From: Parachlamydiales bacterium | GTDB taxonomy: Bacteria > Chlamydiota > Chlamydiia > Chlamydiales > SM23-39 | DNA length: 64,000 nt | Assembly (NCBI GenBank): GCA_050302075.1 | Contig: JBNLAH010000003.1 | Span: forward strand, 4,484 to 68,483 | Direction of reading: 5' to 3' | Part shown: piece by piece, positions 24,617 through 63,945 of the stretch | Position numbering within the stretch: the first letter of the stretch is position 1 | Layout: the number at the start of each line of letters is the position of its first letter | The notes under the pieces: model-generated | The model's database searches: none | Told to the model about the DNA's origin: nothing | What the model saw: only the letters and a program-made list of their open reading frames with translations | Position numbers and translations under genes: made by a program

Positions 24617-24617
24617 C

Positions 24618-25898: not shown

Positions 25899-27503
25899 TT
25901 AATGAGAAAAAAGCCTTTGGCCTGTAAAAATCATTCCAATTTGGCATTCATCTGCCTTTTCAATTACTTCAAAATCTTTTTTTGCCCCTCCCGGCTGCAC
26001 TATCCACTTGATATTAGCCCTATTTGCCGATTCGACACTATCGACAAATGGGAAAAAGCCATCACTTGCTAATACACATTCCCTCATATCTTTACACATT
26101 TTAGCGGCTTTTGGAATAGCTAGAAGCTCCATACTATCAATGCGATTAGGTTGCCCTGAGCCTATCCCAATCGTTTGATAACAACTATCGTTAACTTTTC
26201 TTCCTATAACAATTGCATTGGATTTAACATACTTTGTAGCAATTAAGCTGAATGCTACAAGTTCTTTTAGCTCGTTAGGAAAAACGACTTTTGTTACTAA
26301 TCCCTTCCTAAAGCCTTCCCCTCCAGCAAAAAGATCATCAATATCTTGCATACTAATTTCACTTAAAGGTGTTTGTGAAATCACTCCTCCGCTTATTTTT
26401 TTAAATAACGTTGTTTGTTTTTCAAAGTCAGAGACAATCAACCTAAGCATAGGTTTATGCTCTTTCGCCCATTTTACAAAGGAGTTTGAAAAGTCTTTGG
26501 CAATTATTACCTCAATAAATTTATTTTTTACGACTTCACATAGGTCTTCTTTAACACTTTCATTTATTGCAATCACACTACCAAATGCAGATTTGCTATC
26601 AGCCTCCCAAGCAAGCTCAAAGGCTTCTTTCACTGTTTTTGCAGTAGCAAGCCCACATAAAGATCCATGTTTAACGACTGATACGGATATTTGATCTAGC
26701 ATTTCTTTCAAGTCTATAACAGCATTCGATGCAATTGTTGCATCTTCATAATTGTTATATGACAGCTCTTTGCCTGATATCACTTCTGAATGAGCTATTC
26801 CTTTCTCATCTTTTAACTGGAAAAGCCATCCTTTCTGATCTGGATTTTCCCCATAGCGAAGCTTTTTTTGATTGTAAAAGGTAAAATAGGAAACCAGGTC
26901 TTCTCCTTGCTTAGAAGAAAACTCACTTGCTATCATAGTTTCATACTCAGCTGTTAGCTTAAAAGCTTTTGCAGCCAACATGGATCTAGTCTTTAAGGAA
27001 AGACTCCCTTTAAGGGCTTTTACTTCCTCTAACACTTTAAAATAATCAGAGACAGAAGTAAGCACAGCTACATTTTTATAGTTTTTTGCTGCAGCCCTGA
27101 TTAAGGTAGGCCCCCCGATATCAATAAATTCGATTAGTTCTTCTAAAGGTAGATTTAGATTTTTTGCACTTTTAAAATCATATAAATTACATATCACCAT
27201 ATCAAATGGCTTGATGTCTAATTTGCTTGCCTCCTTTAAATCCTTTGCTTTATCAAGCAAAATACCACCCGCAATTTTAGGGTGAAGTGTTTTGACCCTA
27301 CCTGAAAAGCACTCCTCAAATCCAGTGTAATCTGCTACTGAAGTCGGGTTAAGATTATTTTCCTTTAGGTACTTCAGAGTAGATCCAGAAGCTATTACCT
27401 TTAATGTTGGTTGAGCCGACATTAGCCCTTTAATAAATTTAGCAAGATTATTTTTATCTGTAACACTTGTCAAAATGTTGTAGATTGGGAGGTCTTCCAT
27501 CAA
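25899..27503 (-). CDS. purH: Bifunctional AICAR transformylase / IMP cyclohydrolase
   Basis: 534 aa. N-terminal MGS-like domain (LTSVTDKNNL, RVKTLHPKI, IDIGGPTLIRAAAKN). C-terminal AICARFT domain (ELSYNNYEDA, KHGSLCG, IQPGG). Confidence 0.9.
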   Translation of the reverse strand: MMEDLPIYNILTSVTDKNNLAKFIKGLMSAQPTLKVIASGSTLKYLKENNLNPTSVADYTGFEECFSGRVKTLHPKIAGGILLDKAKDLKEASKLDIKPFDMVICNLYDFKSAKNLNLPLEELIEFIDIGGPTLIRAAAKNYKNVAVLTSVSDYFKVLEEVKALKGSLSLKTRSMLAAKAFKLTAEYETMIASEFSSKQGEDLVSYFTFYNQKKLRYGENPDQKGWLFQLKDEKGIAHSEVISGKELSYNNYEDATIASNAVIDLKEMLDQISVSVVKHGSLCGLATAKTVKEAFELAWEADSKSAFGSVIAINESVKEDLCEVVKNKFIEVIIAKDFSNSFVKWAKEHKPMLRLIVSDFEKQTTLFKKISGGVISQTPLSEISMQDIDDLFAGGEGFRKGLVTKVVFPNELKELVAFSLIATKYVKSNAIVIGRKVNDSCYQTIGIGSGQPNRIDSMELLAIPKAAKMCKDMRECVLASDGFFPFVDSVESANRANIKWIVQPGGAKKDFEVIEKADECQIGMIFTGQRLFSH

Positions 27504-28272
27504 ATTTCTCCTTTAGATAATTTAGTGCATTCTTAAAAATTATTAGCCCTGGGCCATTAGCTGGAACTGGAACATTTTTTCGAATGCAATCTTCTTTTAT
27601 TTCAGTCCAGTTTGGGAGGTTCTCAAAAAATAAAGCAGCTTCAGGATGTGGCATAAGACCAAAAACTAGACCGCTGTCATCACAAACTCCTGCAATATCA
27701 AATAAAGAACCATTTGGATTTTCCTCGCTGTATTTTAAGGCTATCTTTTGATTTGCAAACATAGCTTCAATTGTTTTCTCGCTCTTTGCAAAAAAACATC
27801 CCTCACCATGTCTAATAGGAAGATATAGATTGTCTATTCCTTTTAAGAAGATGCATTTGCTGGAGCAAACTTTAAGCTTCACCCATTTGTTAATAAAATA
27901 ATTTGGGATGTTTGCTTTTAAGGTTGTGAGACCTTCTGTTGAGAAAAAACCAAGTTGAGATAGCACTTGAAACCCATTACAGATACCTAAAATGCACTTT
28001 CCTTCATCAACAAATTCTAAAAGTTTTTCTTTTAAGGAAGACTTGTACTTTAGCTTATTTGCAAAAGCTTTTCCAGCTCCAAGCTCATCACCAAATGAGA
28101 ATCCTCCAGGGAAGACAATAATATGAAATTCTTTCAAATCAATTTTCTCATCTATCAGTTCATTTAAATGAGCATACTTATAATCGACGTCTAGCAAGTT
28201 AAATGCATATGCAGTTTCTCTTTCGCAGTTAATGCCAAATCCAAAAATAATCAACGCTTTAATCGATGTCAT
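27454..28272 (-). CDS. purQ: FGAM synthase glutamine amidotransferase subunit
   Basis: 272 aa. Class I GATase: FPGGFSFGDELG, catalytic GICNGFQVL, MPHPE. The 3' end overlaps the purH start by about 50 nt. Confidence 0.85.
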   Translation of the reverse strand: MTSIKALIIFGFGINCERETAYAFNLLDVDYKYAHLNELIDEKIDLKEFHIIVFPGGFSFGDELGAGKAFANKLKYKSSLKEKLLEFVDEGKCILGICNGFQVLSQLGFFSTEGLTTLKANIPNYFINKWVKLKVCSSKCIFLKGIDNLYLPIRHGEGCFFAKSEKTIEAMFANQKIALKYSEENPNGSLFDIAGVCDDSGLVFGLMPHPEAALFFENLPNWTEIKEDCIRKNVPVPANGPGLIIFKNALNYLKEKFDGRPPNLQHFDKCYR

Positions 28273-31153: not shown

Positions 31154-31158
31154 TATCC

Positions 31159-32103
31159 CTATTTCGAAAAAACATTTCCTATTTTTATGTATTTAAGACA
31201 GCTATCAAATTGCATAGTCTCAAAAACACTTTCCGATACAATAAATGTGTAACCAATACCCATGTTAAATGTCTGATACATCACAGTATCACTAACTCCA
31301 CCCTTAACTTGGATCCACCTAAATATCTTCGGAATGTCCCAGCTATAATTTAGATCTACAAAAAAACCATCTGGCAAGGTTCTTTGAATATTATCAACCA
31401 AACCGCCTCCAGTAATATGAGCCATTGATTTAACACTGTACTTAGTTAAAGTTCTCTCTACATCGCTTACATAAATTCTAGTAGGATGTAATAGACATTG
31501 CCCTAAACTATCACCACCTAAAGGCTCATCTAATGACCTTTGGTTGTCGTAAATAATCTTTCTAATTAAAGAAAATCCATTGCTGTGAACTCCATTTGAT
31601 GTAAGCCCTACAACTACATCTTTACTTTCAATATTTTTCCCATTTATAACTGAATCATTTTGGACAATTCCAACACTAAAACCTGCTAAGTCATACTCTT
31701 TTTCCTTATAAAGTCCAGGCATTTCAGCTGTCTCTCCTCCTAAAAGAGTACACTTTGCCATTTCACACCCTTTTTCAATCCCTTTAAGAACTTCTTTAGC
31801 AACATCTATGTCAAGCTTGCCACAAGCAAAATAATCTAAAAAAAATAAAGGGGTAGCCCCCGTTGTGATAATATCATTGACACACATTGCAACTAGATCA
31901 ATTCCTACCGTTGAATGCTCGTTTAACTCAAATGCAAGTTTCAACTTTGTACCAACTCCATCGGTTGCAGCTACCAAAGATTGATTCTTATTAATAGGAT
32001 ATAGGCCAGAAAAGCCTCCTATATGGGGAAATTTTTTTTGTAAGAAGGAAACAAATTCATTTCCTAAATTAACGTCTACACCCGCCTCTTTATATGATGG
32101 CAT
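31159..32103 (-). CDS. purM: Phosphoribosylformylglycinamidine cyclo-ligase (AIR synthetase)
   Basis: 314 aa. SYKEAGVDV, ATDGVGTKL, NDIITTGATPLFFLDY, GGETAEMPG. First gene of the pur operon. Confidence 0.9.
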   Translation of the reverse strand: MPSYKEAGVDVNLGNEFVSFLQKKFPHIGGFSGLYPINKNQSLVAATDGVGTKLKLAFELNEHSTVGIDLVAMCVNDIITTGATPLFFLDYFACGKLDIDVAKEVLKGIEKGCEMAKCTLLGGETAEMPGLYKEKEYDLAGFSVGIVQNDSVINGKNIESKDVVVGLTSNGVHSNGFSLIRKIIYDNQRSLDEPLGGDSLGQCLLHPTRIYVSDVERTLTKYSVKSMAHITGGGLVDNIQRTLPDGFFVDLNYSWDIPKIFRWIQVKGGVSDTVMYQTFNMGIGYTFIVSESVFETMQFDSCLKYIKIGNVFSK

Positions 32104-32259: not shown

Positions 32260-32814
32260 TTATTTTTCGTTAAATCTTCTTGGATCTCGACGGTTTTGTT
32301 CACTTAACTCTGTATCTCTTCCAAAAAGTTCGTTTCTAGTATACTGTCTGCCGTTTGGTCCACAAGAACTGCAACAGCTATCACATGGATCGCAGCAATC
32401 AGGTTCACAGCAATCTCCACAACCGCAATCTCCACAACCGCAATCCCCACAGCCGCAATCATCACATCCACAATCATCACATGGGTCACAGCAGTCAGTA
32501 CATTCTTTTTTCTTTGGCTGCATTGGAGCATAGATTCCTGTTGGCTGATTTGTCTCCTCACACCTTGGGTTGCACCATTCACAGTCAGATTTTGGGCAAC
32601 AGTCTTTTGGGCAACATTCGTCATCATTGTACCTTTTTCTCATAGGCATCTTAGTATCACTATCTTTCATCATTGGCTGAGACTCTCTCATTTGAGATCC
32701 TCTCATTGATTGTCTTTGACTGCTTTTGCCATCTTTGGTTGGCTGGCATGCCATAGTTAAAAAGCTCATCGCAAAAACTGCGCAGAAGAGCTTTATAAAT
32801 AACTTTTTCTTCAT
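32260..32814 (-). CDS. Extremely cysteine-rich putative lipoprotein with (CGCGD)n repeats
   Basis: 184 aa. Signal peptide ending LTMAC (lipobox-like). A Met/Arg/Gln-rich spacer. Then about 27 Cys in about 90 residues (my manual count), including DCGCDDCGCGDCGCGDCGCGDCCEPDCC. Has its own terminator. Confidence 0.6.
   Translation of the reverse strand: MKKKLFIKLFCAVFAMSFLTMACQPTKDGKSSQRQSMRGSQMRESQPMMKDSDTKMPMRKRYNDDECCPKDCCPKSDCEWCNPRCEETNQPTGIYAPMQPKKKECTDCCDPCDDCGCDDCGCGDCGCGDCGCGDCCEPDCCDPCDSCCSSCGPNGRQYTRNELFGRDTELSEQNRRDPRRFNEK
32410..32484 (-). repeat. 15-bp in-frame tandem repeat (about 5 units, the first two identical)
   Basis: Plus-strand units: gcaatctccacaacc x2, then gcaatccccacagcc, gcaatcatcacatcc, acaatcatcacatgg. 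They encode the CGCGD/CGCDD repeat. Confidence 0.85.
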
Positions 32815-33889: not shown

Positions 33890-35215
33890 ATGAAAGCAAG
33901 TGCAATACTATTAATGGCTGGAAGCGGTAGTAGATTTAAGAAATCTTATCCCAAGCAATTTTATAAACTGCTTGGTACTCCAGTCTACATCCATACTTTA
34001 AAACAATTCATAAAATCAGCCATTTTTCAAGAAATTATTCTATGCTGTCATTCTGATTACATTGATGAAGTAAAAAAAGAAACAGAGCAATATCAAAATG
34101 TAAAAGTAGTATCTGGAGGGAAAACTAGACAGCAGTCGAGTTTTAATGCAATAAATGCCTGCAGTGATGACTGTGAAATAGTCTTAATACACGATGCAGT
34201 AAGACCATTTGTTAGCACAAAAATAATAAGAGATAACCTTACCCTAGCACAAAAATACAAAGCTGTTAACACCTGCATTGAAAGTACTGATACTTTAGTA
34301 AAAACCAGTGATAAAATAAAAATTGATAGCTTCCCTGACCGTAAGAGCCTTATGCGAGGACAAACCCCACAAACGTTCGAATATTCTTTAATAAAAAAGG
34401 CTCACTTAAATGCAATTAAAAAGAACATAACAAATGCAACTGATGATTGTCAGTTAGTCTTTATGCTCCCTCACCCTGTTTACATCTGTAAAGGTGAAGA
34501 GAAAAATATAAAAATCACAACCCCTTTTGATATTAATATCGCAAAACAGATCCTTCAAGAAGCAGAAATATCTTTAGAGCCTTCAGATAAATCATTTGAA
34601 GGAAAAAAATATATCTTGATTGGGGCTAGTGGAGGTATTGGGAAACACATACATAATCTTATTGAACAAAACGAAGGGTTTGTTATTCCTGTATCTTTAA
34701 AGAACTCAAAATACAAGATGGATCTAACAAAGAAAGAAAGCATTAAAAGTGTTTTAGAAATGATCCATAGCAAATACGGCCCTGTAGATGGGTTAATTAA
34801 CTCTGCAGGTCTTTTACATAAGTCGCCGCTTTCTGTTTTAACAGATTCAGAAATTGACAATCTAATTAATATTAACCTTACAGGTGTCATATATTGTTGT
34901 AAGTTTACAAAAATAAAGCGACATGGACACATCATTAACGTTTCATCTTCTTCTTACGTAAAAGGAAGAAAGAATCATAGCATTTATTCAAGCTCAAAAG
35001 CTGCACTAGTTAATTTCACTCAAGCATTAGCGGAAGAAAGAGAAGATTTATATATCAATTCTGTAGTTCCCCAAAGAACCAATACCAATATGAGAAGATC
35101 CCATTTCTATGATGAAGATCCTAATGAACTATTATCGCCTGATACCGTAGCTTTGGAAATTATCAATATATTAAAAAATGAACAAAGCGCAAAAGTATTC
35201 GAGCTATTCATATAA
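33890..35215 (+). CDS. Bifunctional IspD/TarI-like cytidylyltransferase + short-chain dehydrogenase (CDP-ribitol synthase-like, Bcs1/TarIJ architecture)
   Basis: 441 aa. N-terminal domain: ILLMAGSGSRF, GGKTRQQS, IHDAVRPF, RGQTPQTF. C-terminal domain: ILIGASGGIGK (TGxxxGxG-like) and YSSSKAAL (YxxxK). Confidence 0.7.
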   Translation: MKASAILLMAGSGSRFKKSYPKQFYKLLGTPVYIHTLKQFIKSAIFQEIILCCHSDYIDEVKKETEQYQNVKVVSGGKTRQQSSFNAINACSDDCEIVLIHDAVRPFVSTKIIRDNLTLAQKYKAVNTCIESTDTLVKTSDKIKIDSFPDRKSLMRGQTPQTFEYSLIKKAHLNAIKKNITNATDDCQLVFMLPHPVYICKGEEKNIKITTPFDINIAKQILQEAEISLEPSDKSFEGKKYILIGASGGIGKHIHNLIEQNEGFVIPVSLKNSKYKMDLTKKESIKSVLEMIHSKYGPVDGLINSAGLLHKSPLSVLTDSEIDNLININLTGVIYCCKFTKIKRHGHIINVSSSSYVKGRKNHSIYSSSKAALVNFTQALAEEREDLYINSVVPQRTNTNMRRSHFYDEDPNELLSPDTVALEIINILKNEQSAKVFELFI

Positions 35216-37803: not shown

Positions 37804-38875
37804 TTAGAAATCGAATCTAGCACCAACATTTAAACCGTGAGACAAGACTGATCTTCTCCAGTTAAATAAATCTGTTGGGACTGTTGCATCTGTTGAAACA
37901 TTGTACTCTTCTAAGTAAGAGACAAAGTTTGGCCAGTAGTGCAATTCATATCCAAGCTTTAGTCCAAAATAGTAACAGCATTTACAAAAATGCTTTCCCC
38001 AAGTAAGACCTAAGCCTGCTTGAGCATTCATTTGGAAATCTGTGTCTTTATAGTTTTGAGTAAGTGTTGATGTACTTGCAAAGTTAGTTGCAGTATCAAA
38101 CAACGTTGACTCATCTCTGATTCTATAGTTTTTTTGCCCGATCAATGCTGAGAATGAAGAGTTTCCATATAAGCCGAATCCCCAACATAAATCAACATTC
38201 ATGTCCATACCAGTGTGTAGACCAACACCTAAATTAAAATGATGGTTTACATCAACATGGTGTGTTTGTGGGAAACCTACAACAGAGTTCTCTGCTACAT
38301 AGTCAACTCTTAAATCTGTTTTTACCCAAGCAAACCTAACACCTACAAATGGGCTAAAAGAATATCTTGAGCATGTGTATACTGTATTAAAATCAAAGTC
38401 CAACATTCTCATTTTGAAGCGGTTTTTTGCACTAGCAGAAAGACTTAAAAGTCCTGTTGTGTCCCCTTCAAATGGATCGTTTAAAAGCCAGTAAGCAGAT
38501 ATTGAATTGCTGATATTAGAACTTGATGTCACGTTCCCAACTGAAAATGAATCTGTTCCATCAGTGCTATACTGGGTGTACTTTGCTGTTCCAAAAGAGC
38601 AGTTAGAAAAGTAAACTCCCAAAGCTACTCTAAATCCTGAATCAGCAGACAAAGGCACATTATGGATATTTGAGCTATATGTATTTATAGCATTTCCTGT
38701 CCCTATAGAAAATGGCGGAACTCTGTACCTTTCACTTGCATATGGTGTTAAGCTATATGTTTTAAGGTATAAATACTCACCTTCCACAAATGCCCAGCCA
38801 CATTTCACAGGTAGTGGAAGACCAAAACAACATCTTTTGTAATTTTCATCACAGCCACACCTTGGCTCATAACAT
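37804..38875 (-). repeat. Direct repeat copy 1 (about 1.04-1.07 kb, near-identical to 40559..41630)
   Basis: By-eye alignment at a constant offset of 2755 bp. I found three mismatches between 37804 and about 38840, then progressive divergence to about 38875. Confidence 0.85.
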
Positions 38876-39036
38876 AAACTGCTACTTTTACTAGCTTGCC
38901 AGTCTTGCATATCAACTTTATCGTTGTTTTTTGACCTTGCTGATATGTCAAATTCAAAATCATTATCTTCTGCAAAACCGAAAGTCGCAAAAAACAATCC
39001 AATAGCTAGAGGAACTTTAAAAAACTGTTTCATCAC
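37804..39036 (-). CDS. Cys-containing beta-barrel outer membrane protein, MOMP-like family (paralog A)
   Basis: 410 aa. Signal peptide (...FGFA/EDN). CxC and CC motifs (EPRCGCDENYKRCCFGLPLPVKCGW). Alternating beta-strand pattern. C-terminal GARFDF with terminal Phe. Start is GTG at 39036 or ATG at 39033. Confidence 0.7.
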   Translation of the reverse strand: MMKQFFKVPLAIGLFFATFGFAEDNDFEFDISARSKNNDKVDMQDWQASKSSSLCYEPRCGCDENYKRCCFGLPLPVKCGWAFVEGEYLYLKTYSLTPYASERYRVPPFSIGTGNAINTYSSNIHNVPLSADSGFRVALGVYFSNCSFGTAKYTQYSTDGTDSFSVGNVTSSSNISNSISAYWLLNDPFEGDTTGLLSLSASAKNRFKMRMLDFDFNTVYTCSRYSFSPFVGVRFAWVKTDLRVDYVAENSVVGFPQTHHVDVNHHFNLGVGLHTGMDMNVDLCWGFGLYGNSSFSALIGQKNYRIRDESTLFDTATNFASTSTLTQNYKDTDFQMNAQAGLGLTWGKHFCKCCYYFGLKLGYELHYWPNFVSYLEEYNVSTDATVPTDLFNWRRSVLSHGLNVGARFDF

Positions 39037-39130: not shown

Positions 39131-40396
39131 TTAAAAATCAAAACGAATTCCTGCATTCAGGCCATGTGAAAATACAGTTCTTTTCCAAACGAAAGTATCT
39201 CTTGGAATCGAATTAGCACCTACTGCATTAGAATTTAAATAAGTTAAAAAATTTGGCCAAAATATTGCTTCATAGCCGACCTTGATACCGGCATAATAAG
39301 CACATTTACAAAAATGAGCTCCCCAGTGGAATCCACATCCAAAAGAACCCGAAAATTGAACATCTGTTTGTTTATAATTTTCTGTTACTCTTGAACGAAC
39401 CGGGCCTGAATCATTTAGTAAAAGGATATCGCGTATTCGAAAGTTTCTTTGTCCAACTATAGCAGAAAATGATGACGAAGTATAAAAATTCAAATTCCAG
39501 CATAGATCTAAATTCATATCAATTCCAGTATGAAACCCAGCTCCTAAGTTAAAATGCTGGCTGACATCAATATGGTGGCCTTGTTCAAAGTCTAAAGTTG
39601 GATCAATATATTTATAATCTACGAATAAATCTGTTTTAACCCATGCTACTCTAGCCCCAACAAATGGATTAATTGAAAGATTAGAGCAAGTGATTGCTCT
39701 GTAGAAATCAAAGTCTATTACCTTCATCCTGAATCTATTGGCAGCATTACTGTTTACTTGGGTGACATTATTTAAATCAGTTGGGCCACCTCTTGTCGCA
39801 AGCAGCCAAAAAATAGTTAGACCAGATCTATTGGGAGCCGCCGCTGAATCTATATTGTCTACAGAAACACTGGCCTTTCCATCTGTTTCAAATTGGGTAT
39901 ATTTGGCTGTAAAGTAAGAGCAGGAAGAAAAATATATTCCCAAGCATGCTCTATAACCTGAATTAGCATCTAAAGGGACAAATAAATCCTCTGAGTCATA
40001 TTCAGTTGCACTTCCAATCGTTGGAGGAGGAACCTGCCTCCTAACTCCTAAAAATGGAGTTAAGCTATATGTTTTAAGGTATAGATATTCACCTTCGAGA
40101 AAGACCATACCACACCTTGCCGGTAAAGGCAGTGGGTAACAACACCTTGTATAAGGCTCACAGCAGCTTTTTGTCATACATAGAGAAGATTCTTTTTGCT
40201 TAGTTTGTTTTAATTTTTTTTCACTTCTTTCACTGCTTTCCTTTTTTTTAACATCTTCAATTGAAAAAAAACCTTTGTCTGACAAGTCTGCATTCTCAGT
40301 CAGTGTTTTATCCGGAGCTTTATTTTCTACTTTGATATCGACTTCTTCTGCAAAAATTGCACTAAAAAAGAAAAATGCTGTAAATAGTGTTCTCAT
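39131..40396 (-). CDS. Cys-containing beta-barrel outer membrane protein, MOMP-like family (divergent paralog B)
   Basis: 421 aa. Signal peptide, Lys/Glu/Ser-rich N-terminal region, CCEPYTRCCYPLPLPARCGM, shared EGEYLYLKTYSLTP block, C-terminal GIRFDF. Confidence 0.7.
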   Translation of the reverse strand: MRTLFTAFFFFSAIFAEEVDIKVENKAPDKTLTENADLSDKGFFSIEDVKKKESSERSEKKLKQTKQKESSLCMTKSCCEPYTRCCYPLPLPARCGMVFLEGEYLYLKTYSLTPFLGVRRQVPPPTIGSATEYDSEDLFVPLDANSGYRACLGIYFSSCSYFTAKYTQFETDGKASVSVDNIDSAAAPNRSGLTIFWLLATRGGPTDLNNVTQVNSNAANRFRMKVIDFDFYRAITCSNLSINPFVGARVAWVKTDLFVDYKYIDPTLDFEQGHHIDVSQHFNLGAGFHTGIDMNLDLCWNLNFYTSSSFSAIVGQRNFRIRDILLLNDSGPVRSRVTENYKQTDVQFSGSFGCGFHWGAHFCKCAYYAGIKVGYEAIFWPNFLTYLNSNAVGANSIPRDTFVWKRTVFSHGLNAGIRFDF

Positions 40397-40558: not shown

Positions 40559-41630
40559 TTAGAAATCGAATCTAGCACCAACATTTAAACCGTGAGACAA
40601 GACTGATCTTCTCCAGTTAAATAAATCTGCTGGGACTGTTGCATCTGTTGAAACATTGTACTCTTCTAAGTAAGAGACAAAGTTTGGCCAGTAGTGCAAT
40701 TCATATCCAAGCTTTAGTCCAAAATAGTAACAGCATTTACAAAAATGCTTTCCCCAAGTAAGACCTAAGCCTGCTTGAGCATTCATTTGGAAATCTGTGT
40801 CTTTATAGTTTTGAGTAAGTGTTGATGTACTTGCAAAGTTAGTTGCAGTATCAAACAACGTTGACTCATCTCTGATTCTATAGTATTTTTGCCCGATCAA
40901 TGCTGAGAATGAAGAGTTTCCATATAAGCCGAATCCCCAACATAAATCAACATTCATGTCCATACCAGTGTGTAGACCAACACCTAAATTAAAATGATGG
41001 TTTACATCAACATGGTGTGTTTGTGGGAAACCTACAACAGAGTTCTCTGCTACATAGTCAACTCTTAAATCTGTTTTTACCCAAGCAAACCTAACACCTA
41101 CAAATGGGCTAAAAGAATATCTTGAGCATGTGTATACTGTATTAAAATCAAAGTCCAACATTCTCATTTTGAAGCGGTTTTTTGCACTAGCAGAAAGACT
41201 TAAAAGTCCTGTTGTGTCCCCTTCAAATGGATCGTTTAAAAGCCAGTAAGCAGATATTGAATTGCTGATATTAGAACTTGATGTCACATTCCCAACTGAA
41301 AATGAATCTGTTCCATCAGTGCTATACTGGGTGTACTTTGCTGTTCCAAAAGAGCAGTTAGAAAAGTAAACTCCCAAAGCTACTCTAAATCCTGAATCAG
41401 CAGACAAAGGCACATTATGGATATTTGAGCTATATGTATTTATAGCATTTCCTGTCCCTATAGAAAATGGCGGAACTCTGTACCTTTCACTTGCATATGG
41501 TGTTAAGCTATATGTTTTAAGGTATAAATACTCACCTTCCACAAATGCCCAGCCACATTTCACAGGTAGTGGAAGACCAAAACAACATCTTTTGTAGTCT
41601 TCATCACAGCCACATCTTGGCTCAAAACAT
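40559..41630 (-). repeat. Direct repeat copy 2 (near-identical to 37804..38875)
   Basis: Same alignment. The repeat starts exactly at the stop codon (ttagaaatcgaatct...). The flanks downstream of the stop differ. Confidence 0.85.
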
Positions 41631-41818
41631 AATGAATCATCTTCTTGATTCATCGTTTGTCTATTACCGTTCATCATGTCACGATTATTCATATTACGTG
41701 ACTTTTTGTTTGATCTTGCGACCACGGCCCCACTTTCATAATCATTACTTTGAGCAAAAGTTAAACTCATGAAAAGAAATGAGGCTAAAAAAGGTAATTT
41801 ATATAGAATACCCCTCAT
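40559..41818 (-). CDS. Cys-containing beta-barrel outer membrane protein, MOMP-like family (paralog C, near-identical barrel to A)
   Basis: I place the start at the ATG at 41818, preceded by AGGAGG at 5-nt spacing (MRGILYKLPFLASFLFMSLTFAQ). The ORF track extends to 41869. The C-terminal roughly 345 aa are almost identical to paralog A. The N-terminal region is Asn/Met-rich and unrelated. Confidence 0.7.
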   Translation of the reverse strand: MRGILYKLPFLASFLFMSLTFAQSNDYESGAVVARSNKKSRNMNNRDMMNGNRQTMNQEDDSLCFEPRCGCDEDYKRCCFGLPLPVKCGWAFVEGEYLYLKTYSLTPYASERYRVPPFSIGTGNAINTYSSNIHNVPLSADSGFRVALGVYFSNCSFGTAKYTQYSTDGTDSFSVGNVTSSSNISNSISAYWLLNDPFEGDTTGLLSLSASAKNRFKMRMLDFDFNTVYTCSRYSFSPFVGVRFAWVKTDLRVDYVAENSVVGFPQTHHVDVNHHFNLGVGLHTGMDMNVDLCWGFGLYGNSSFSALIGQKYYRIRDESTLFDTATNFASTSTLTQNYKDTDFQMNAQAGLGLTWGKHFCKCCYYFGLKLGYELHYWPNFVSYLEEYNVSTDATVPADLFNWRRSVLSHGLNVGARFDF

Positions 41819-41938
41819 AAAAATCCTCCTCGTTTTCTTTCCGTTTATCATAAAAAGTAATTTTATCAAGAAAAAAAATAAAAATAATTTGATATTTTTG
41901 AAAAAAATAAAATTAAAACTACAAAAAGATAATCTAAT

Positions 41939-54400: not shown

Positions 54401-54764
54401 GGCTGCAGTCATACACGGAAACAAAGGAACTGCAAGAGCCTCAAGAATCAAGGCATTAAAAAACGATTTAGAGTTGAGTGAACTTTATAAGCAGATTTCT
54501 AAAAAAATGGTGGGAAAGACCTCTACAGCAGAAATTTTCTATGTTCCGCATATTGCAGCATCTGAAAAAATAAAATTATCCAAGCACGTGTGCTTTGCTG
54601 CTATTAGCTTTAAAGAATCAGTTTTAAACTCAAAATTCAAAAACCCCGACCTGGTTGTTATCGTGTATCTTCCATTTGGAAAATCTGGGAAAGAAGCCGC
54701 CCCACTCGCAGCTCAAGTTATTGCTAAGTGGGATGAAATACGTTCAAGATCCGGAAGATATTGA
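51465..54764 (+). CDS. pbp2: Penicillin-binding protein 2 (class B transpeptidase), long chlamydial-type form
   Basis: 1099 aa. N-terminal TM anchor. Pedestal motifs ([41 protein letters not shown]). SxxK = SIFK with Ser at codon 746. SSN, and KTS(T) in place of KTG. Confidence 0.85.
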
Positions 54765-55724
54765 ATCTTGTTCTAATGACAAAATTTGGTCAAAATATTT
54801 AATTGTAGCTAAGAGGCCATCATCAATTGAAGTTGTAGGGCTCCACTTCAAAAGTTCCTTAGCTCTTTTGATATTTGGTTTTCTTTTTCGAGGATCATCT
54901 GATGGAAGCGGTAATGTAATGATCGGTGATTTAGAGTTTGTAAGCAAAAGGATTTTCTCAGCTAAATCAATAATCCTGAACTCATCAGGATTACCTAAAT
55001 TGATTGGACCTATTGCTGAGTAGTCAGATTTCATCATAGCACAAATTCCCCCTATTAGATCGCTCACATAACAAAAAGATCTAGTCTGTTCGCCTGAACC
55101 GTAAATTGTAATAGGTTGGTTTTTTAAAGCTTGGACTATAAAGTTAGAAACTACCCTTCCATCATTGGGCTGCATTCTAGGCCCATATGTGTTAAAAATT
55201 CTAACTACCTTAATAGGAATCTGAAACTCTCTCCAATAATCAAAAAATAGGGTCTCAGCGCATCTTTTACCCTCGTCATAACAAGATCGAAGCCCTGTTG
55301 GATTAACATTCCCCCAATAGCTTTCCTCTTGAGGATGTAACTTAGGATCTCCATAAACCTCACTAGTTGAAGCTTGTAGCACCTTGGCCTTGTTTGACAC
55401 TGCCAAATCCAGCATATTTATAGAGCCTAAAACACTTGTCTTAGTTGTTTGAATTGGATCCATTTGGTAATGGACCGGAGATGCCGGACAAGCAAAATTA
55501 TAGACTTCATCAACATCTAACTGCAAGGGTCTACAAATATCGTGTTCAATTACATTAAAGTTAGAGTAGCAAATTAAATGATCAATATTTTCTTTTTTAC
55601 CAGTGAAGAAATTATCTACACAAGTTACAAAATGATCTTCTTTGATTAATCTTTCACATAAATGAGAGCCTAAAAACCCAGCTCCACCGGTAACTAATAT
55701 TTTTTTTTGTTCTTTTTTTCTCAT
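54744..55724 (-). CDS. uxs: UDP-glucuronate decarboxylase (UDP-xylose synthase)
   Basis: 326 aa. [37 protein letters not shown] (YxxxK). Strongly UXS-like. TAATG overlap with the upstream wzc-like gene. Confidence 0.85.
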
Positions 55725-58564
55725 TACTTTACTTTTAGAAATCCAACCATGCTTTCTTTTTGAAAAAAAGCAGATAACTTTTGTACTGTTTCATCTATAA
55801 AAGACACTACCAATTTGTCAGAAAATTGCAAATAAGCAGTAGCCTCAGCACTAGTTGGACTTGTCTTTCCATATGCTATAACAATGTCATATTTTTCTTT
55901 TATTTCTTTTATAAATTGATGAAAAGATAAAGATCTCAATATTTCTGTTCCGTATCTAGAAGTTATTCCCGCTGGCAAAAAGTCAAAATTATGAAACCTT
56001 TGAATGGGGATTTCTTTAAGATTTTTATCTAAATATTGTGCCATTCCTATGCCCTTATTTGAATGGATTGATTGAAAGTTAAGTTCAAGCAATAATACTT
56101 TCTTCCCAATCTTACCAACTAAATCGCTTAAACAATAAGCATAGTTCGGCCCATTGTTTCCTATTAAACTTAATACTTTACATGATTTTTCCAATAAAGG
56201 CTCGGAAAATTGAATAATATTTCTTAACACTTCTAAGTCATTATCATTAATGTATTCGACTTCAGGACCATCGCAGGCATAAGAGATCTCTCCTAGGGTT
56301 ATTTCTTTAATGGCACTCAGATTGTCTAATGTAGCTATAAAACCTTTAGATAAGGCTCTTATAAAAAAGTATAAAAAAGCTAGAAAAAGGCCGATTAAAA
56401 AAGTCACAACAAATATAAAAAACCCTTTTTTGCTGTTAGGGCCTTTTGGGAACTCCGCCAATTCAATAGGTTTGGATGCAATTTGTTTTAAGTGGTATTC
56501 AATTGTTTTAGATTCTATTAAACTTGTTAAAGACTGGATCATCTTTAGTGCAGCTCCAGAGCGCAGATCTAGTAACTTTTCTTTTTTCCATTTCTCGGGG
56601 AGTAACAACATGTTGTTTCTAATTGATTGCATTTGATTTTGTAACAAGTTTTTTTCTTTTAAAATATTTTCTTTTCTAAAAAACAAATAATCTTTTGCTT
56701 GCTGATCTAAAATTGAGATCTGTTGATTGGTCCTATCAAGAGCTGCCATCTGAAGCGCATAAAACTTGTCTTTATATAAATTTTCTAACGACCTCTCAGC
56801 TTGGAGAGTTTGGCTAATATGTGTTTTCAAAAATTTACGAATTAAAAAAAGATCTTTTTCTAATCTCCCCTTGTCTTTCTCACTTAAAATATCATTATCA
56901 TTTAAACGAAATTGAATATCATTTGCCTGATTTATAAGCCCTTTACTTACAGAGTCTGAAAGGAAAGGAGATATAGAGCTTATTTCAAATTGATCCTTGT
57001 CAATTTCTTTCAAAATAATTTCCAATTGTCTTACTTGAGCTTGGATTTGATCTATTTTATGATTATATTTTATATAAAGCTCATTTGCAGTATCAGCGTC
57101 CAACCCTTCAAACATCTTGTCTTGAGATTGAGCAAATATTGGCCTAGATTTTAATATTTTTTCTTGAGTTGTCAGAGCTCTTTTAAATTGAGACAGGTGA
57201 TAATTCAAATCTTCTTTTATTGTATTTTCATCTTTTTCTGTCTTTAAACCTTCAATTTGTGAAGATGTCTTTAATATTTCTTTTTTGTTTAATTGTTCCA
57301 GTGCATTTTCGATCTCACTTTTTTCTTTTCTTAAACTTGAAATATCTTTCAAAAGTTTATCCATATTTTGGGAATACGTCCCTTGCAGCGGATCTTCATT
57401 CTTTTTTTCCTGTGAAAAAAGCGACATGCTTAAGGCATCTTTTTTCTGGTTCAAAGTACTTTTCTGAATACTCATAGCAGCAAGTTTTTTCCCAACAAGC
57501 TCATCATTAAATATAAAATCGCTGTCTGATTTTTTTAACAAATCAATATGCGCAAGCTCTAAGTCAAGGTCGAATAGCCTTTTCAAACATTCTGCGTGGG
57601 GGTTTGCAAAGCTTGAAATTTCTTGTTCTAAAGCAATAAATCCATTCTTAATTAAATTGTCTGATAGATACTCTGCATGGCTATCGAGAGTATTTTCAAG
57701 GTTTTGCCCTACTTGCTTTTTTCTTTGCTCTAAATATTTAAATTGTTCTTTAGCAAAGGTGTCACTCTCTTTCTCTAAATATTTAACATAAGAGTGCATA
57801 AGCCCATTTAAAGTATTTTGAGCTAGATATGGATCAATATCTTTGTAGGTTATATCCAAAACATTATCGCTATAACGCGACACTTGGATTTTTAAATTGC
57901 GTTTAACTTTTGCAACACAGCCCTCAACTGATGTAAAATTTAAAATATAAGCTTTGTTTTTTTTTAAATTTTTTGGAGTCGCTTGTATTATAAAAGAAAT
58001 TTCATCTAGAAAGATTTTTTCATTTAACCTTCCTTTTGCTTTCACTTTTTTCTTCATATCAAAAATTTCAAATGAGTCGTTTGACTTAAAAAAAACAAGA
58101 TATTTTCTTGAAGCTGTAGATGGACAATTTACTTCTTTAAATCTAAAGTTGCTACTTTCCTTATCAGTTATTTTAAATTCTCTTTTTAGATTTTGAAAGT
58201 ACCTTGATAAGATTGCAAAAAAACGACTTTTATTTTTCAAATAGCAACTAGCTTGCAATCCAAATTTTTTCACAACAGGCTCAATTACAAGCCGAGACTG
58301 AATCATCTCCTTAGCTTTATTCTTATCATTTTCAACTGATCCTGACGAAAAAAAATCTTTAAAATTCAACGATTCTTTTTTTTCGGGCATTTCTGAAAAT
58401 TTAGCAGAAGATTGGTAGACATCAGGTTTAATCATTACATAAAAAAAACAAATACTTGCAAAAATTAAAGCAAAACCAAAAATTTGTTTTTTTAAAGTAG
58501 TAAAAATATTTGATATATCGCTTAAGCAAAAAAATACTTCATCACCTGACATGTTATTTCTCAT
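55724..58564 (-). CDS. Polysaccharide co-polymerase (Wzc/GumC-like) with degenerate C-terminal BY-kinase-like domain
   Basis: I place the start at the ATG at 58564, an ATGA overlap with the wza stop. N-terminal TM and Wzz-like segment. Very long coiled-coil periplasmic region. A second TM ([21 protein letters not shown]). The C-terminal P-loop-like domain lacks the Walker A Lys ([10 protein letters not shown]). Confidence 0.65.
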
Positions 58565-59613
58565 GGAATAAACAACCCCCAACTACGACATCCTTTGCCA
58601 ATAACATCTATACCGGTAAAACAAGGTAGAAGCTGTGAGATAAAACGATTCCATTCGGTAATTGGCTTTGCAGCAACATAAACAACATCTCCCGGCATCA
58701 ATAGCAGCGATTCATTTGGCAAATGAATAACATGCTTCCAACTAAGTGTGTATATCTTCGGGCATGCTATTGCTCCTCTAATGATTTGGATATATGATTT
58801 GTCCCCTGTAAACGGAATTCCTCTGGCGGACGCCAAAGCTTCTCTTAATGATATATATCCATTAGGCAAATTGACAACAGTTTCACAGCCTACTTCCCCT
58901 AGAACCATTAGATTGGCAGATGAGGGATCCGCTATATAAATTTTGTCACCACCACGCATAACAACATTTTGGGTCATATCGCCCTCCTTTAAAAGCTTAT
59001 GGAAATCAACTGATATTAATTGATTGTCTCGAATCATATAACTTTTAAAAAGGTTTGCATTTGGAGGGACCTTTGCAATTGAAAGAACATCAAACAATCT
59101 AATTTTTCCATCTACCGGCACACTGGAAATTGCCACAAGCCCGGCCAATTCAACTTTTCTTAATATTCTGTTTTTATATGCTACAAAAGCTTCTATATCA
59201 CTAATTTGGTTCAAATAAAGGTTCTGAATTTTTTCTTTAGCTTCCTGGAGTGTTAAGCCACTAACACAAACGGGTGGAAGGTCTGGCAAATATATCCTCC
59301 CGTCAGTTACCCTATAACCAATCGTATTACCAATTTTAGAAACAGCTTCTGTAATGTCTGATCTTTTGGGATGATAGATCTCAATTTTTAGAACATCATC
59401 TTCATGAATTGTATCTTTATACTCTTCTAAAAAATCTAAAGGGAGCTGTTCAAAACATTTGCCTTCCATTTCCAAAATAGAAAATTTTCCAGCCTTTATT
59501 TTGTAAGAATCTACGACGAATTGGTCTGCTCCACAAACATCTTTGCCCATATAAGGAGTTGAGCAAGAACTAAGCAAGCTTAAAAAAATTATAAACAAAA
59601 GAGAACATCTCAT
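58561..59613 (-). CDS. wza: Polysaccharide export outer membrane lipoprotein (Wza family)
   Basis: 350 aa. Lipobox LLSSCS. Poly_export-like DDVLKIEIY...VTDGRIYLPDLPPVCVSGLTLQEAKEKI. Two SLBB-like repeats (VELAGLV..., LMVLGEVG...). LMPGDVVYV. Confidence 0.8.
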   Translation of the reverse strand: MRCSLLFIIFLSLLSSCSTPYMGKDVCGADQFVVDSYKIKAGKFSILEMEGKCFEQLPLDFLEEYKDTIHEDDVLKIEIYHPKRSDITEAVSKIGNTIGYRVTDGRIYLPDLPPVCVSGLTLQEAKEKIQNLYLNQISDIEAFVAYKNRILRKVELAGLVAISSVPVDGKIRLFDVLSIAKVPPNANLFKSYMIRDNQLISVDFHKLLKEGDMTQNVVMRGGDKIYIADPSSANLMVLGEVGCETVVNLPNGYISLREALASARGIPFTGDKSYIQIIRGAIACPKIYTLSWKHVIHLPNESLLLMPGDVVYVAAKPITEWNRFISQLLPCFTGIDVIGKGCRSWGLFIP

Positions 59614-59941
59614 GCTAATTCACAGGGCTAAAATTTCTATTTCGCAGCTGTTTACTTATGTTTGGTCCCTTTTTTACCTTTAAGTAGCCATAAAGAAGAA
59701 TAAAAGATTTGCTCAAAATAGCGTAAAAAAAAGCTTGCATAATTGAAGCCTGAATTTAAATGTTTTTTTTACATTAATGAAAATACACTACCACTTGGTT
59801 ATGAGCCAGTCAATATGTTTAAAGCAGGATCTGTTATGATTTTAGTTAAATTTGTTGAATTCGATGATAAAAATCATGTATACATGATTGCAATCTATGA
59901 GAGCTTTGCACTTTAAAAACATAGCTCTTTGGTAAAAATTT

Positions 59942-60934
59942 ATGAAATTAAGACCTACCCAATCATTAATGAAAAGAGTTTTAATAACAGGTGCTTCCGG
60001 TTTTATAGGATATCATTTAGCCTTTTTTTTAAAAAAAAGAAATGATTTTGTTATTGGGATAGATAATTTTAATGATTATTACGACCAAAGTTTGAAAACT
60101 TACAGATCTAATCTATTAAAGGAAATTGGCGTTGATGTTTTTAATATTAACATCTTAGAAACAGATAAAATAATTAAAATAATCAATGAAAACTCAATTA
60201 CACATATTGTCCACTTGGCAGCTCAAGCTGGGGTTAGAAAATCATTTACCCACCCTGAGGACTATATAACCAACAATATCAATGGATTTTATAACATACT
60301 AGAAATTTGCAGAAAAACACCTAATATAACTTTGCTGTACGCATCTTCTTCTTCTGTCTATGGAGTAAACCGCAAATCGCCTTTTTCTGAAGACGACCAT
60401 ACTGACCACCCTGCAAATTTATATGGGGCAACCAAGAAGTCAAATGAAGCTATGGCCTTTGCATACCACAATCTATACGGAATAAAAATGACAGGCCTAC
60501 GCTATTTTACAGTTTATGGACCAGCTGGAAGACCTGACATGGCCTATTTTTCTTTCGCAAAGTCAATTATGAATAACCAGCCTATTTCTGTCTTTAACCA
60601 TGGAAAAATGCAAAGAGATTTTACATACATCGATGATATTGTAGAGGGCACCGCTTCAGCGCTTGACTTAGAGTCTGACTTCGAAATTTTCAATTTAGGT
60701 AATAACAGGCCTATCGGTATTATGAACTTAATTGAGGAACTAGAAAAAGGGCTATCTAAAAATGCAATAATCAATATGCTACCTATGCAGCCTGGAGAAC
60801 TAATTGAAACTTGCGCTGATATATCAAAGAGTCGCAAACTCTTAAACTATCAACCCAAAGTAAGTTTTGAGACAGGTATTTCAAAATTTATCGATTGGTT
60901 TTTTTCTTATCAGAAATGTCTTCTATCTTCTTAA
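59942..60934 (+). CDS. NAD-dependent epimerase, UDP-glucuronate 4-epimerase-like
   Basis: 330 aa. ITGASGFIGYHL, ASSSSVYG, YGATKKSNE (YxxxK), and the RYFTVYGPAGRPDMAYF motif typical of UDP-GlcA 4-epimerases (Cap1J/GAE type). Confidence 0.75.
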   Translation: MKLRPTQSLMKRVLITGASGFIGYHLAFFLKKRNDFVIGIDNFNDYYDQSLKTYRSNLLKEIGVDVFNINILETDKIIKIINENSITHIVHLAAQAGVRKSFTHPEDYITNNINGFYNILEICRKTPNITLLYASSSSVYGVNRKSPFSEDDHTDHPANLYGATKKSNEAMAFAYHNLYGIKMTGLRYFTVYGPAGRPDMAYFSFAKSIMNNQPISVFNHGKMQRDFTYIDDIVEGTASALDLESDFEIFNLGNNRPIGIMNLIEELEKGLSKNAIINMLPMQPGELIETCADISKSRKLLNYQPKVSFETGISKFIDWFFSYQKCLLSS

Positions 60935-63510: not shown

Positions 63511-63945
63511 CTATTTTATTTCTTTTAAAATAAATGATTCTTGAATCAAAAAAAATGCTAACCTTTTTTCTTTCACATAAGAAATTAAAACACCGATTAG
63601 TTGATGGCACGAAAAACACTTTAATGGATGATTACCTTCGTAACTGAAAAAGCCTTCTCGGGCTTTGTCTAAAGCAAAAGTTCTGTCAAGGTAACATCTT
63701 TTAAGCGGACCTGGGCCATCTTTTTGATAGTACATTAAAAAATGCTTACAAAGACCACAAGAGACCTTAAGTAAAGATGGCTCTCCTCTAGCTTCTGTAT
63801 AAGAATCGTATTTAAATTTGATTAAATCTTTCCAACTACCCATTTGTTTATTTTGTCCTATCCTAACATTGTTAAAAAAGCTTCTTATAAATTTGATCCA
63901 CTGAAAGTGAATCAACATTTTTAAATTCTCCAATAATCGGCTCAT
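63511..63945 (-). CDS. Hypothetical protein with CxxC...CxxC pairs (zinc-ribbon-like)
   Basis: 144-aa ORF. The real start may be the internal Met (MGSWKDLIKF). CGLCKH ... CFSCHQ. No family recognised. Confidence 0.3.
   Translation of the reverse strand: MSRLLENLKMLIHFQWIKFIRSFFNNVRIGQNKQMGSWKDLIKFKYDSYTEARGEPSLLKVSCGLCKHFLMYYQKDGPGPLKRCYLDRTFALDKAREGFFSYEGNHPLKCFSCHQLIGVLISYVKEKRLAFFLIQESFILKEIK

Follow-up and report, generated by a model that had tools for sequence, protein, structure and literature searches.

In the 64,000-nucleotide stretch of Parachlamydiales contig JBNLAH010000003.1 (assembly GCA_050302075.1) analysed here, which we call the window, the gene wza for an outer-membrane polysaccharide export (OPX) lipoprotein overlaps the gene for a Wzc-like polysaccharide co-polymerase (PCP) of the PCP-2a type, whose cytoplasmic kinase domain has lost every catalytic motif. 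We propose, with a probability of roughly two in three, that the two proteins span the envelope as parts of a machine that assembles and exports polysaccharide in the Wzx/Wzy manner and works independently of a kinase. By analogy with Escherichia coli Wza, the chlamydial Wza would form an octameric outer-membrane channel with a C-terminal alpha-helical barrel. The Wzc-like protein would be the inner-membrane PCP-2a, with its long all-helical periplasmic domain docking onto Wza, and its dead kinase domain would act as a nucleotide-independent oligomerisation or scaffold ring that holds the PCP octamer and, probably, a polymerase in the PCP membrane lumen. Scaffold action of this kind has been shown for PslE (PMC13434223) and proposed for EcpK and HfsB (PMC12004946), and phosphorylation-independent operation of the Wzc-like protein is a reasonable expectation.

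A preliminary description of the window had placed four open reading frames (ORFs) at this locus, and all four are present exactly there. On the minus strand, uxs (54744-55724) encodes a UDP-glucuronate decarboxylase (UDP-xylose synthase) of 326 aa, the Wzc-like gene (55724-58582) encodes the PCP-2a co-polymerase with its kinase-dead C-terminal domain, 952 aa when read from the TTG at 58582, and wza (58561-59613) encodes the OPX lipoprotein of 350 aa. On the plus strand, a divergent gene (59942-60934, ORF of 330 aa) encodes a nucleotide-sugar 4-epimerase of the extended short-chain dehydrogenase/reductase (SDR) type. Direct reading of the junctions bears out that the three minus-strand genes are chained by ATGA and TAATG overlaps: the wza stop and the Wzc-like ATG at 58564 meet in ccATGAga (minus-strand context ttattccATGAgaaat), and the Wzc-like stop and the uxs ATG at 55724 meet in gTAATGa (minus-strand context aaagTAATGagaaaa). 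Such translational coupling counts in favour of cooperation among wza, the Wzc-like gene and uxs. The ATG at 58564, which overlaps the wza stop as ATGA, is likely the real start of the Wzc-like gene, because the resulting 946 aa agree with the NCBI gene call and with the start of the close orthologs P0002 and P0003; the epimerase probably starts at M10 (ATG 59969). Both promoters are presumed to lie in the intergenic region between wza and the epimerase gene (59614-59941). A consensus promoter scan found 33 matches versus 25.7 expected in a shuffled background, not above it; a terminator scan likewise gave no excess over shuffled background.

The Pfam matches of Wza all lie above their gathering cut-offs: Poly_export (PF02563) scores 35.5 bits (cut-off 28), SLBB_2 (PF22461) 45.5 bits over two stretches, and Wza_C (PF18412), the C-terminal amphipathic helix, 29.3 bits (cut-off 25.8). 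NCBIfam PRK15078 matches at E 8e-28. With these and a signal peptide bearing an LSSC lipobox (residues 14-17), which is kept in 96 of 108 full-length homologs, the initial assignment of Wza as a lipoprotein with Poly_export and SLBB domains is sound. Its homologs fall into 1949 clusters at E<=1e-20, the best 120 being all 65-91% identical, and the most conserved stretch (91%) is residues 301-325, the start of the C-terminal helix. The public wza gene call (L014 9015-10004) gives only 329 aa, starting with MGKD downstream of the lipobox. Homologs back the 350-aa ORF including the signal peptide and lipobox (5' end, 59551-59613), and the deposited annotation is therefore N-terminally truncated. 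Beyond the Wza_C helix, chlamydial Wza proteins end in a tail of about 15 residues (58564-58608) in which a Cys and W-G are conserved. If E. coli Wza is a guide, the tail would be exposed on the cell surface, and disulfide bonds might tie it into the chlamydial outer-membrane complex.

The Wzc-like protein is a true PCP-2a homolog. Its N-terminus matches Wzz (PF02706) marginally, with 25.7 bits against a cut-off of 25.5, and the NCBIfam Wzc model PRK11519 at E 4e-10 over residues 31-301. As a single sequence its C-terminus matches tyrosine-kinase models at E ~2e-3, and a single-sequence search of PDB with the whole protein returned noise only (PsaO, Vipp1). A profile of 52 family members retrieves genuine Wzz+GNVR+AAA_31 tyrosine autokinases at E 8e-33 to 6e-14, and a global hhalign comparison of the family with ten genuine autokinases gives a probability of 100% and E 3.8e-57 over 649 aligned columns, running from residue 7 to 952 of the Wzc-like protein and 1 to 708 of the kinase. 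An AlphaFold2 model built on the family alignment has a mean predicted local distance difference test score of 82.5, with the C-terminal domain mostly at 83-93. Its 28 best PDB matches in Foldseek are full-length E. coli Wzc chains (best 7nhr, E 3.3e-26), and next come isolated kinase domains of Wzc, BceF, Etk, CapAB and VpsO at target-normalised template-modelling scores of 0.6-0.7; the C-terminal domain finds 3la6, 6z0p, 3cio, 4jlv, 2ved and 6u1q at E 1e-7 to 3e-6. Whether the 946-aa protein would match PCP-family profiles had been raised as a possible weakness of the assignment; Wzz, PRK11519, hhalign and Foldseek all match it.

The model and a hydropathy scan agree on two transmembrane helices, the first at 58430-58486 (minus strand; residues 33-51 in the scan, 31-51 in the model) and the second at 56360-56416 (minus strand; residues 723-741 and 720-746, respectively). 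Directly before the second helix lies a proline-rich PCP motif of the pattern D/E-x-A-x2-P-x2-P...KK, also present in a genuine PCP-2a (P0158, VDTAIEPVKPIKPKK). The AlphaFold2 model has a beta-rich base at about residues 111-248, inside the region matched by PRK11519, an all-helical region at 251-698 and an alpha/beta C-terminal domain. The modelled base may correspond to Wzc jellyroll motif 2, the capsular polysaccharide-binding module in a 2026 paper (PMC12881504). Compared with canonical PCP-2a, the protein has 271 extra residues, all in the periplasmic helical domain, as insertions placed by hhalign at 327-364, 394-434 and 455-646; the last (56645-57220, minus strand) is the largest family-specific insertion and is all-helical in the model. 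The insertions might either extend how far the protein reaches across the periplasm or make its barrel thicker. The span between the transmembrane helices has a family median of 682 aa (range 576-786) versus ~384-475 aa in those genuine PCP-2a kinases with a clean prediction of two transmembrane helices, and the cytoplasmic domain is shorter, ~218 residues versus ~273-297 in genuine kinases.

That cytoplasmic domain, a pseudokinase with the fold of a bacterial tyrosine kinase (BY-kinase), occupies 55727-56344 on the minus strand (residues 747-952). The preliminary description rightly saw that the BY-kinase layout is kept, as the fold matches show, and set its start at 56180; the domain begins at about residue 747 (56344). 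The three strings it quoted as replacements of the Walker motifs are present, at residues 806-815, 830-836 (LLLELNF) and 899-909, and alignment places them on the Walker A, A' and B motifs of BceF, CapB, Wzc and eight genuine autokinases. At the Walker A remnant (56138-56167, minus strand, residues 806-815) a 5-residue deletion removes GK[S/T]; the Walker A' remnant VLLLELNFQ (56072-56098, minus strand, residues 829-837) is without the DxDxR arginine; and the Walker B remnant (55856-55891, minus strand, residues 898-909) keeps Y-D, with D-x-P-P replaced. A profile of the C-terminal domain, whose three best PDB matches are BceF, CapA1B1 and Wzc (E 0.018-0.069), places GPNYA over GK[S/T], ELNFQ over DxDxR and IAYGKxSP over DxPP. 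Aligned by MAFFT, eight real autokinases show G-x5-GK[S/T]-[TF], whereas the chlamydial proteins read G-x-x-G-P-[ND] and then at once Y-[SA], the window's protein having GNNGPN-----YA in this position. At Walker A' it has LLLELNFQS, and the Arg column of the family is mostly A/S/R/G/K with no consensus. The chlamydial proteins in this alignment stop after the last beta-strand, whereas the kinases run on into a YGYGY-type tail; the last 40 residues of the Wzc-like protein contain a single Tyr, in keeping with the absence of a tyrosine cluster claimed earlier. We also looked for a Walker A that is intact but shifted, which the preliminary description had named as a possible oversight. The sole GK[ST], GKT at 905-907, sits at the Walker B position; the orthologs with 88% and 79% identity have GKA there, and the one with 55% has GAV. 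This lineage-specific, unconserved triplet was rejected, and no functional P-loop was found. Because the 5-residue deletion has removed GK[S/T], the A' arginine and D-x-P-P are gone and the Tyr tail is absent, the kinase domain is, to judge by its motifs, catalytically dead, as first proposed, and predicted to be unable to bind or hydrolyse ATP or to be tyrosine-phosphorylated.

The loss of the P-loop is old and selected and does not reflect recent decay. An exhaustive profile search with clustering at 50% identity found representatives of 1335 clusters at E<=1e-3 and of 611 at E<=1e-30; at least 611 clusters were thus counted as the Wzc-like family, and the motifs were inspected in 153 representatives. 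The P-loop deletion is present in all 153, so the earlier statement that the domain "has lost its key features" stands for the motifs and falls as a description of decay in one recent lineage. Gx4GK[ST] occurs in the last 300 residues of 0/153 members, a relaxed Walker A pattern gives three scattered, non-homologous matches only, and the last 25 residues hold 0-1 Tyr in 124/153 and never more than three. The sequence at the former P-loop is itself conserved, with the family consensus G-G-K-G-P-[DN]-Y-[SA]: G811 is present in 47 of 52 sequences, and the aligned Pro, D/N and Y/F are found in 109, 133 and 146 of the 153, respectively. Among 52 diverse members, mean pairwise identity is 32% for the C-terminal domain, 29% for the helical domain and 25% for the N-terminus and periplasmic base, and L755, G764, R787, G872 and E880 are invariant. 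In the MAFFT alignment, R787 falls on the conserved Arg in the LRT motif that opens real kinase domains, and we take this to be the second Arg of the ExxRxxR oligomerisation motif; its retention is compatible with a ring interface having been kept.

Family-wide conservation of the replacement motif, together with several invariant charged residues that remain, could also speak for a domain that is still an enzyme and carries out non-canonical nucleotide binding or phosphotransfer through the G-x-G-P-[DN]-Y-[SA] loop, R787 and E880. This is very improbable given that the phosphate loop is 5 residues shorter and without Lys or Ser/Thr, that the Mg-coordinating Asp-x-Pro-Pro, the DxDxR arginine and the acceptor tyrosines are all absent, and that the structurally analogous PslE has no kinase activity (PMC13434223).

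The best 150 family members are nearly all 800-1040 aa long and match end to end. A word-indexed search with one sequence gave 4 close homologs, and with the 52-sequence profile mainly non-chlamydial kinases. Named members are mostly annotated 'hypothetical protein', one of them 'tyrosine-protein kinase Etk/Wzc', and neither label is accurate for the family. Twelve genome loci were fetched by Wzc-like similarity from one-genome-per-species reference contigs, and all 12 are labelled Chlamydiota (Simkaniaceae, Ca. Neptunochlamydia and several unclassified Chlamydiae, Chlamydiales or Chlamydiia metagenome-assembled genomes (MAGs)); with the type III secretion system (T3SS) genes and the 1099-aa penicillin-binding protein 2 (PBP2) of the window, they support the chlamydial identity assumed for the organism. 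The gene order (gpsA), yjeF, divergent epimerase, wza, wzc-like, (uxs), PBP2, rpsB is preserved as far as each contig extends, and it recurs in the contig of the 55% ortholog and in assembly GCA_050304555.1. The wza gene adjoins the wzc-like gene in 14/14 related loci, the epimerase gene is divergent beside wza in every locus with its upstream side available, and the PBP2 neighbourhood is invariant in every locus that extends far enough. Conservation in relatives, proposed earlier as a check, therefore concerns the same block, which is syntenic down to 25% Wzc-like identity. Compared with the window's proteins, those of loci L002-L013 are 59-80% identical for Wza, 72-81% for RpsB, 56-79% for GpsA, 55-64% for the epimerase, 64-73% for UXS, 35-50% for PBP2 and 25-37% for the Wzc-like protein; for L001, a closer locus, the values rise to 86% for Wza and 55% for the Wzc-like protein.

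These comparisons bear on the possibility that the Wzc-like gene is the decaying relic of a horizontally acquired capsule locus. When a single sequence is judged, loss of all kinase motifs does resemble decay. The ORF is intact in at least 611 divergent clusters, however, conservation within the protein peaks in the C-terminal domain, synteny is held even at 25% identity, and the locus, at 0.31-0.35, does not differ in GC content from the remaining window, which makes a relic scarcely credible. Family breadth, synteny and C-terminal conservation rule out recent pseudogenisation of the Wzc-like gene, and uniform GC together with deep synteny led us to reject a horizontally acquired capsule island.

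Two further observations concern the extent of the block. A 484-kb MAG contig labelled Verrucomicrobia (L016; GCA_018239895.1, JAFEGL010000003.1) carries the epimerase, wza, a 936-aa PCP, uxs, PBP2, rpsB, tsf and pyrH, and its Wza is 70% identical to that of the window. A verrucomicrobial origin of this Wza was rejected, as the contig has the same chlamydial block and its label is probably wrong. Upstream of gpsA lie a glycosyltransferase family 9 (GT9) gene and a gene for a conserved 298-aa hypothetical protein with no Pfam match (L014 2761-4693, beyond the window's right end; window 63511-63945). The pair is syntenic in L002, L005 and L013 and extends the conserved block towards genes of the lipopolysaccharide (LPS)-core type.

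The two sugar-nucleotide enzymes suggest what the machine might export. UXS matches human UDP-glucuronate decarboxylase (UXS1; 2b69/4gll) in phmmer with 392 bits (E 1.5e-116), the next class scoring 136 bits, and this full-length homology to a characterised enzyme, well above other extended SDRs, confirms the identity first given to uxs. For the epimerase, the best match is 5u4q (312 bits, E 3.3e-92), deposited as 'dTDP-glucose 4,6-dehydratase', followed by a second group, 6zl6/6zla (195 bits, E 1.2e-56), and by MoeE5 6kv9 (122 bits, E 2e-34); true RmlB, 1g1a, scores only 79 bits (E 2.5e-21). We take 6zl6 to be the UDP-glucuronic acid (UDP-GlcA) 4-epimerase of Bacillus cereus, and MoeE5 to be a UDP-GlcA 4-epimerase as well. 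By similarity, the product of the divergent gene is a probable UDP-GlcA 4-epimerase, the substrate being only probable because the best match is deposited under a dehydratase name. UXS and the 4-epimerase would turn UDP-GlcA into UDP-xylose (UDP-Xyl) and UDP-galacturonic acid (UDP-GalA). With the two genes linked in this way, what this lineage exports is probably an acidic glycan that contains Xyl and GalA. An OPX and PCP-2a export pair with a linked UDP-xylose synthase and UDP-hexuronate 4-epimerase-like gene is what the preliminary description had claimed, and this part stands. Its high-molecular-weight surface polysaccharide containing Xyl and GalA is a prediction from gene linkage.

Other genes for glycan metabolism occur elsewhere in the window. 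A glycosyltransferase family 2 (GT2) gene (2721-3716, plus strand) lies directly upstream of the T3SS sctJ cluster, and a GT9 gene of the heptosyltransferase family is at 182-1225 (plus strand). Positions 14069-16508 (minus strand) hold dTDP-rhamnose genes, rfbD- and rfbC-like by Pfam and rfbB-like by translation, with no adjacent rfbA. At 33890-35215 (plus strand) a 441-aa protein fuses an IspD-type cytidylyltransferase (E 7e-50) to a short-chain dehydrogenase (E 1e-30), which we take to be the architecture of CDP-ribitol synthase (TarI/TarJ, Bcs1 type); it hints at a ribitol-phosphate-containing glycopolymer, unexpected in a chlamydia. The dTDP-rhamnose enzymes, GT2, GT9 and the CDP-ribitol-synthase-like fusion might contribute to the cargo.

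Several observations weigh against an export machine for a surface polysaccharide. GNVR (PF13807) has no Pfam match in the Wzc-like protein at E<=0.1, the region still aligning in hhalign. A motif and hydropathy scan of the 64-kb window found no wzx, wzy, ugd, initiating phosphoglycosyltransferase or wzb: there was no CxGNxCRS motif, no second BY-kinase Walker A and no Wzy_C, the scan matched only SufC, SctR and SctT, and the only polytopic membrane ORFs are the T3SS genes SctR and SctT. The uxs gene is absent from the Simkaniaceae-type loci L008, L011 and L013, and Xyl therefore cannot be a universal component. In the literature searched, no polysaccharide has been demonstrated for any carrier organism. 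Wza is far more conserved (59-86%) than is usual for capsule exporters, and the locus lies among housekeeping genes and not in a glycosyltransferase island, which is atypical for capsule or exopolysaccharide (EPS).

The last two points also count towards the view that Wza and the Wzc-like protein have been re-purposed beyond polysaccharide, as a trans-envelope tether or a conduit for another polymer that is tied to PBP2 and the cell-wall machinery. Wza conservation (59-86%) comes near that of ribosomal protein S2 (72-81%) and exceeds that of PBP2 (35-50%), the position next to PBP2 is invariant in loci extending far enough, no glycosyltransferase island is adjacent in the window's lineage, and the periplasmic domain exceeds that of canonical PCP-2a by 271 residues. 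On the other hand, PES, SLBB, Wza_C, the Wzz base and a jellyroll-like beta region, the domains specific for polysaccharide export, are all intact, the pair is in tight linkage with two nucleotide-sugar enzymes, one of them translationally coupled, and other lineages have a Wzy_C or GT92 gene at the same spot. We know of no precedent for a non-glycan function of an OPX/PCP-2 pair, and we regard re-purposing as quite improbable.

The spot in question lies between the wzc-like gene and PBP2, and what fills it differs from lineage to lineage. In most loci it holds uxs. In L008 (5093-6580, minus strand) and L011 (9379-10842, minus strand) the uxs slot holds a gene of the Wzy_C/O-antigen-ligase family (PF04932; E 2e-16 and 2e-18, respectively), and in L005 and L010 a glycosyltransferase of family GT92 lies between the wzc-like gene and PBP2. 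Judged from their family assignments, the Wzy_C and GT92 insertions are the best evidence in hand pointing to the handling of a glycan linked to undecaprenyl diphosphate. Replacement of uxs by Wzy_C was seen in Simkaniaceae and Neptunochlamydia loci; L013 (10765-10830) keeps a 22-residue remnant only.

Another interpretation is that what wza and the wzc-like gene serve is not free capsule or EPS but a glycan attached to LPS, in the form of an O-antigen, a K-LPS-like chain or a decoration of the outer core. The Wzc-like protein would then be a chain-length or assembly co-polymerase, its Wzy_C neighbour a WaaL-type ligase, and the epimerase and UXS would feed the LPS core. Pfam gives the description 'O-Antigen ligase' to PF04932, the family of the gene beside wzc-like in L008 and L011; the GT9 and 298-aa genes upstream of gpsA (L014, L002, L005, L013) and the second GT9 gene at window 182-1225 would suit an LPS pathway; and, as with LPS core genes, the locus belongs to the core genome and is passed on vertically. 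Against this, a complete Wza whose C-terminus forms a barrel helix is typical of capsule and EPS export, LPS reaching the surface via Lpt, and the translational coupling of wza to the PCP gene likewise speaks against an LPS role. The family PF04932 also includes some polymerases. The two interpretations overlap in part, since group 1/4 capsule systems also make K-LPS, and a role confined to LPS seems to us rather unlikely. We continue to favour the kinase-independent Wza/Wzc-like export machine.

The accepted picture of the chlamydial envelope was built on Chlamydiaceae, with rough Kdo (3-deoxy-D-manno-octulosonic acid)-lipid A LPS, a disulfide-linked protein shell and no capsule. To judge by this locus, the environmental and much larger part of the phylum encodes an intact trans-envelope glycan exporter under strong purifying selection, Wza being 59-86% identical among the 12 related loci, and these bacteria probably make a surface sugar polymer that is absent from the textbook Chlamydia envelope. 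A broader proposal, to which we give somewhat less than even odds, is that the ancestor of the non-Chlamydiaceae Chlamydiota already had a dedicated, phosphorylation-independent Wza/Wzc-pseudokinase machine that reaches unusually far across the periplasm, that the machine has stayed from then on in a single housekeeping locus next to PBP2, its Wza conserved nearly as well as a ribosomal protein, and that all of them make a conserved surface polysaccharide, probably containing uronic acid. If so, the chlamydial envelope would have a core component that has gone unrecognised, a coat of the elementary body or a glycan for host attachment, which disappeared on the line leading to Chlamydiaceae. 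The locus is a concrete target for envelope-glycan work in Simkania-, Waddlia- or Parachlamydia-type models. Research on polysaccharide export gains a very large natural family, at least 611 clusters, of fused kinase-dead PCP-2a proteins, whose defined P-loop deletion and conserved replacement motif provide comparative material on the BY-kinase fold without phosphorylation. The interest lies in core-genome conservation at the scale of a phylum of obligate intracellular bacteria and in its implications for the envelope, not in the pseudokinase as such.

The window contains other genes worth recording. Three tandem Cys-rich porin-like paralogs of the Legionella_OMP family (PF05150) lie on the minus strand at 37804-39036, 39131-40396 and 40559-41869. 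The first and third are 88% identical, with near-identity over the last ~360 residues and different N-termini, which indicates recent duplication or gene conversion. At 32260-32814 (minus strand) a 184-aa protein without a Pfam match has a signal- or lipobox-like N-terminus and an extremely Cys-rich C-terminal half (DCGCDDCGCGDCGCGDCGCGDCCEPDCCDPCDSCCSSCG); it may be an envelope protein analogous to OmcA. A de novo purine cluster at 21190-32103 (minus strand) comprises purF, purN, purD, purC, purH, purQ, purL and purM, of which purF, D, C, H and L are confirmed by Pfam and purN, purQ and purM were assigned by reading translations. To our knowledge, Chlamydiaceae lack de novo purine biosynthesis.

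Among known systems, E. coli Wza-Wzc (7nhr, 3la6, 9r62-9r6b; PMC8285477, PMC12881504) is alike in fold from end to end and in having adjacent genes, and its Wza shares the domain set of the chlamydial Wza, including the lipobox and the Wza_C helix. E. coli Wzc, however, is an active autokinase, cycled by the Wzb phosphatase, with Walker A, A' and B motifs and a Tyr cluster; these features are absent from the Wzc-like protein, and the window has no wzb. The periplasmic domain of the Wzc-like protein is also ~200-270 residues longer than that of E. coli Wzc.

PslE, which serves the Psl exopolysaccharide of Pseudomonas aeruginosa, is encoded in the 15-gene psl biosynthesis operon, unlike the chlamydial wza/wzc-like pair, which lies among housekeeping genes. 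It is a fused PCP-2, solved by cryo-EM in 2026, whose kinase-like domain, devoid of the catalytic Walker Lys and of the Y-cluster at the C-terminus, shows no kinase activity; its octamer is stable with the OPX partner PslD, cross-linking does not impair function, and the Wzy-type polymerase PslJ sits in the PslE transmembrane lumen, stabilised by the tail at the C-terminus of PslE (PMC13434223). PslD-PslE thus resembles the chlamydial pair as a trans-envelope conduit of an OPX protein and a dead-kinase fused PCP-2, without phosphorylation-driven assembly and disassembly. The differences are several. PslD is without a C-terminal helix, whereas the chlamydial Wza has Wza_C. In PslE the Wzc-type carbohydrate-binding motif 2 is missing and a 16-stranded beta-barrel lies in the periplasm; the Wzc-like protein has a Wzc-like beta-rich base and an all-helical distal domain 271 residues longer than canonical. 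PslE has lost the catalytic Lys (PMC13434223), whereas in the Wzc-like protein a 5-residue deletion has removed GK[S/T].

EcpK/EpsV of Myxococcus xanthus and HfsB/HfsA of the Caulobacter holdfast pair stand-alone BY pseudokinases, proposed to be scaffolds, with PCP-2 proteins (PMC12004946). EcpK and HfsB likewise have the BY-kinase fold without Walker motifs or Tyr tail, but they are separate proteins. Fused kinase-dead variants from proteobacteria, SMc01795, VV1_2305, Mlr8439 and BCETI_6000729, are listed by Cuthbertson et al., as cited in PMC12004946; as described there, they share the single-polypeptide layout, and it is by this description that we set them beside the Wzc-like family. The family did not retrieve them among its best matches and forms its own large clade. 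A pseudokinase Wzc does pose the regulatory problem raised in the preliminary description, its kinase being dead, but it is not new, given PslE, EcpK, HfsB and the fused variants.

For chlamydiae, Heinz et al. 2009 (PMC2811131) list a Wza cluster in their Table 2, pCOMP 024, as a predicted outer-membrane lipoprotein, present, as we read the table, in Parachlamydiaceae and other bacteria and not in Chlamydiaceae. The entry concerns the same kind of Wza, without discussion of a PCP partner, dead kinase, synteny or sugar-nucleotide genes, and the literature searched held no account of the PCP partner of Wza, the pseudokinase or a surface polysaccharide in environmental chlamydiae. The earlier remark that this export route is foreign to the textbook chlamydial envelope is correct insofar as the textbook rests on Chlamydiaceae; Wza of non-Chlamydiaceae had, however, already been tabulated in 2009. 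Kinase-dead PCP-2 proteins have been an established kind since 2025-2026, and what is distinctive of the chlamydial family is its conservation at the scale of a phylum and its 271 extra periplasmic residues.

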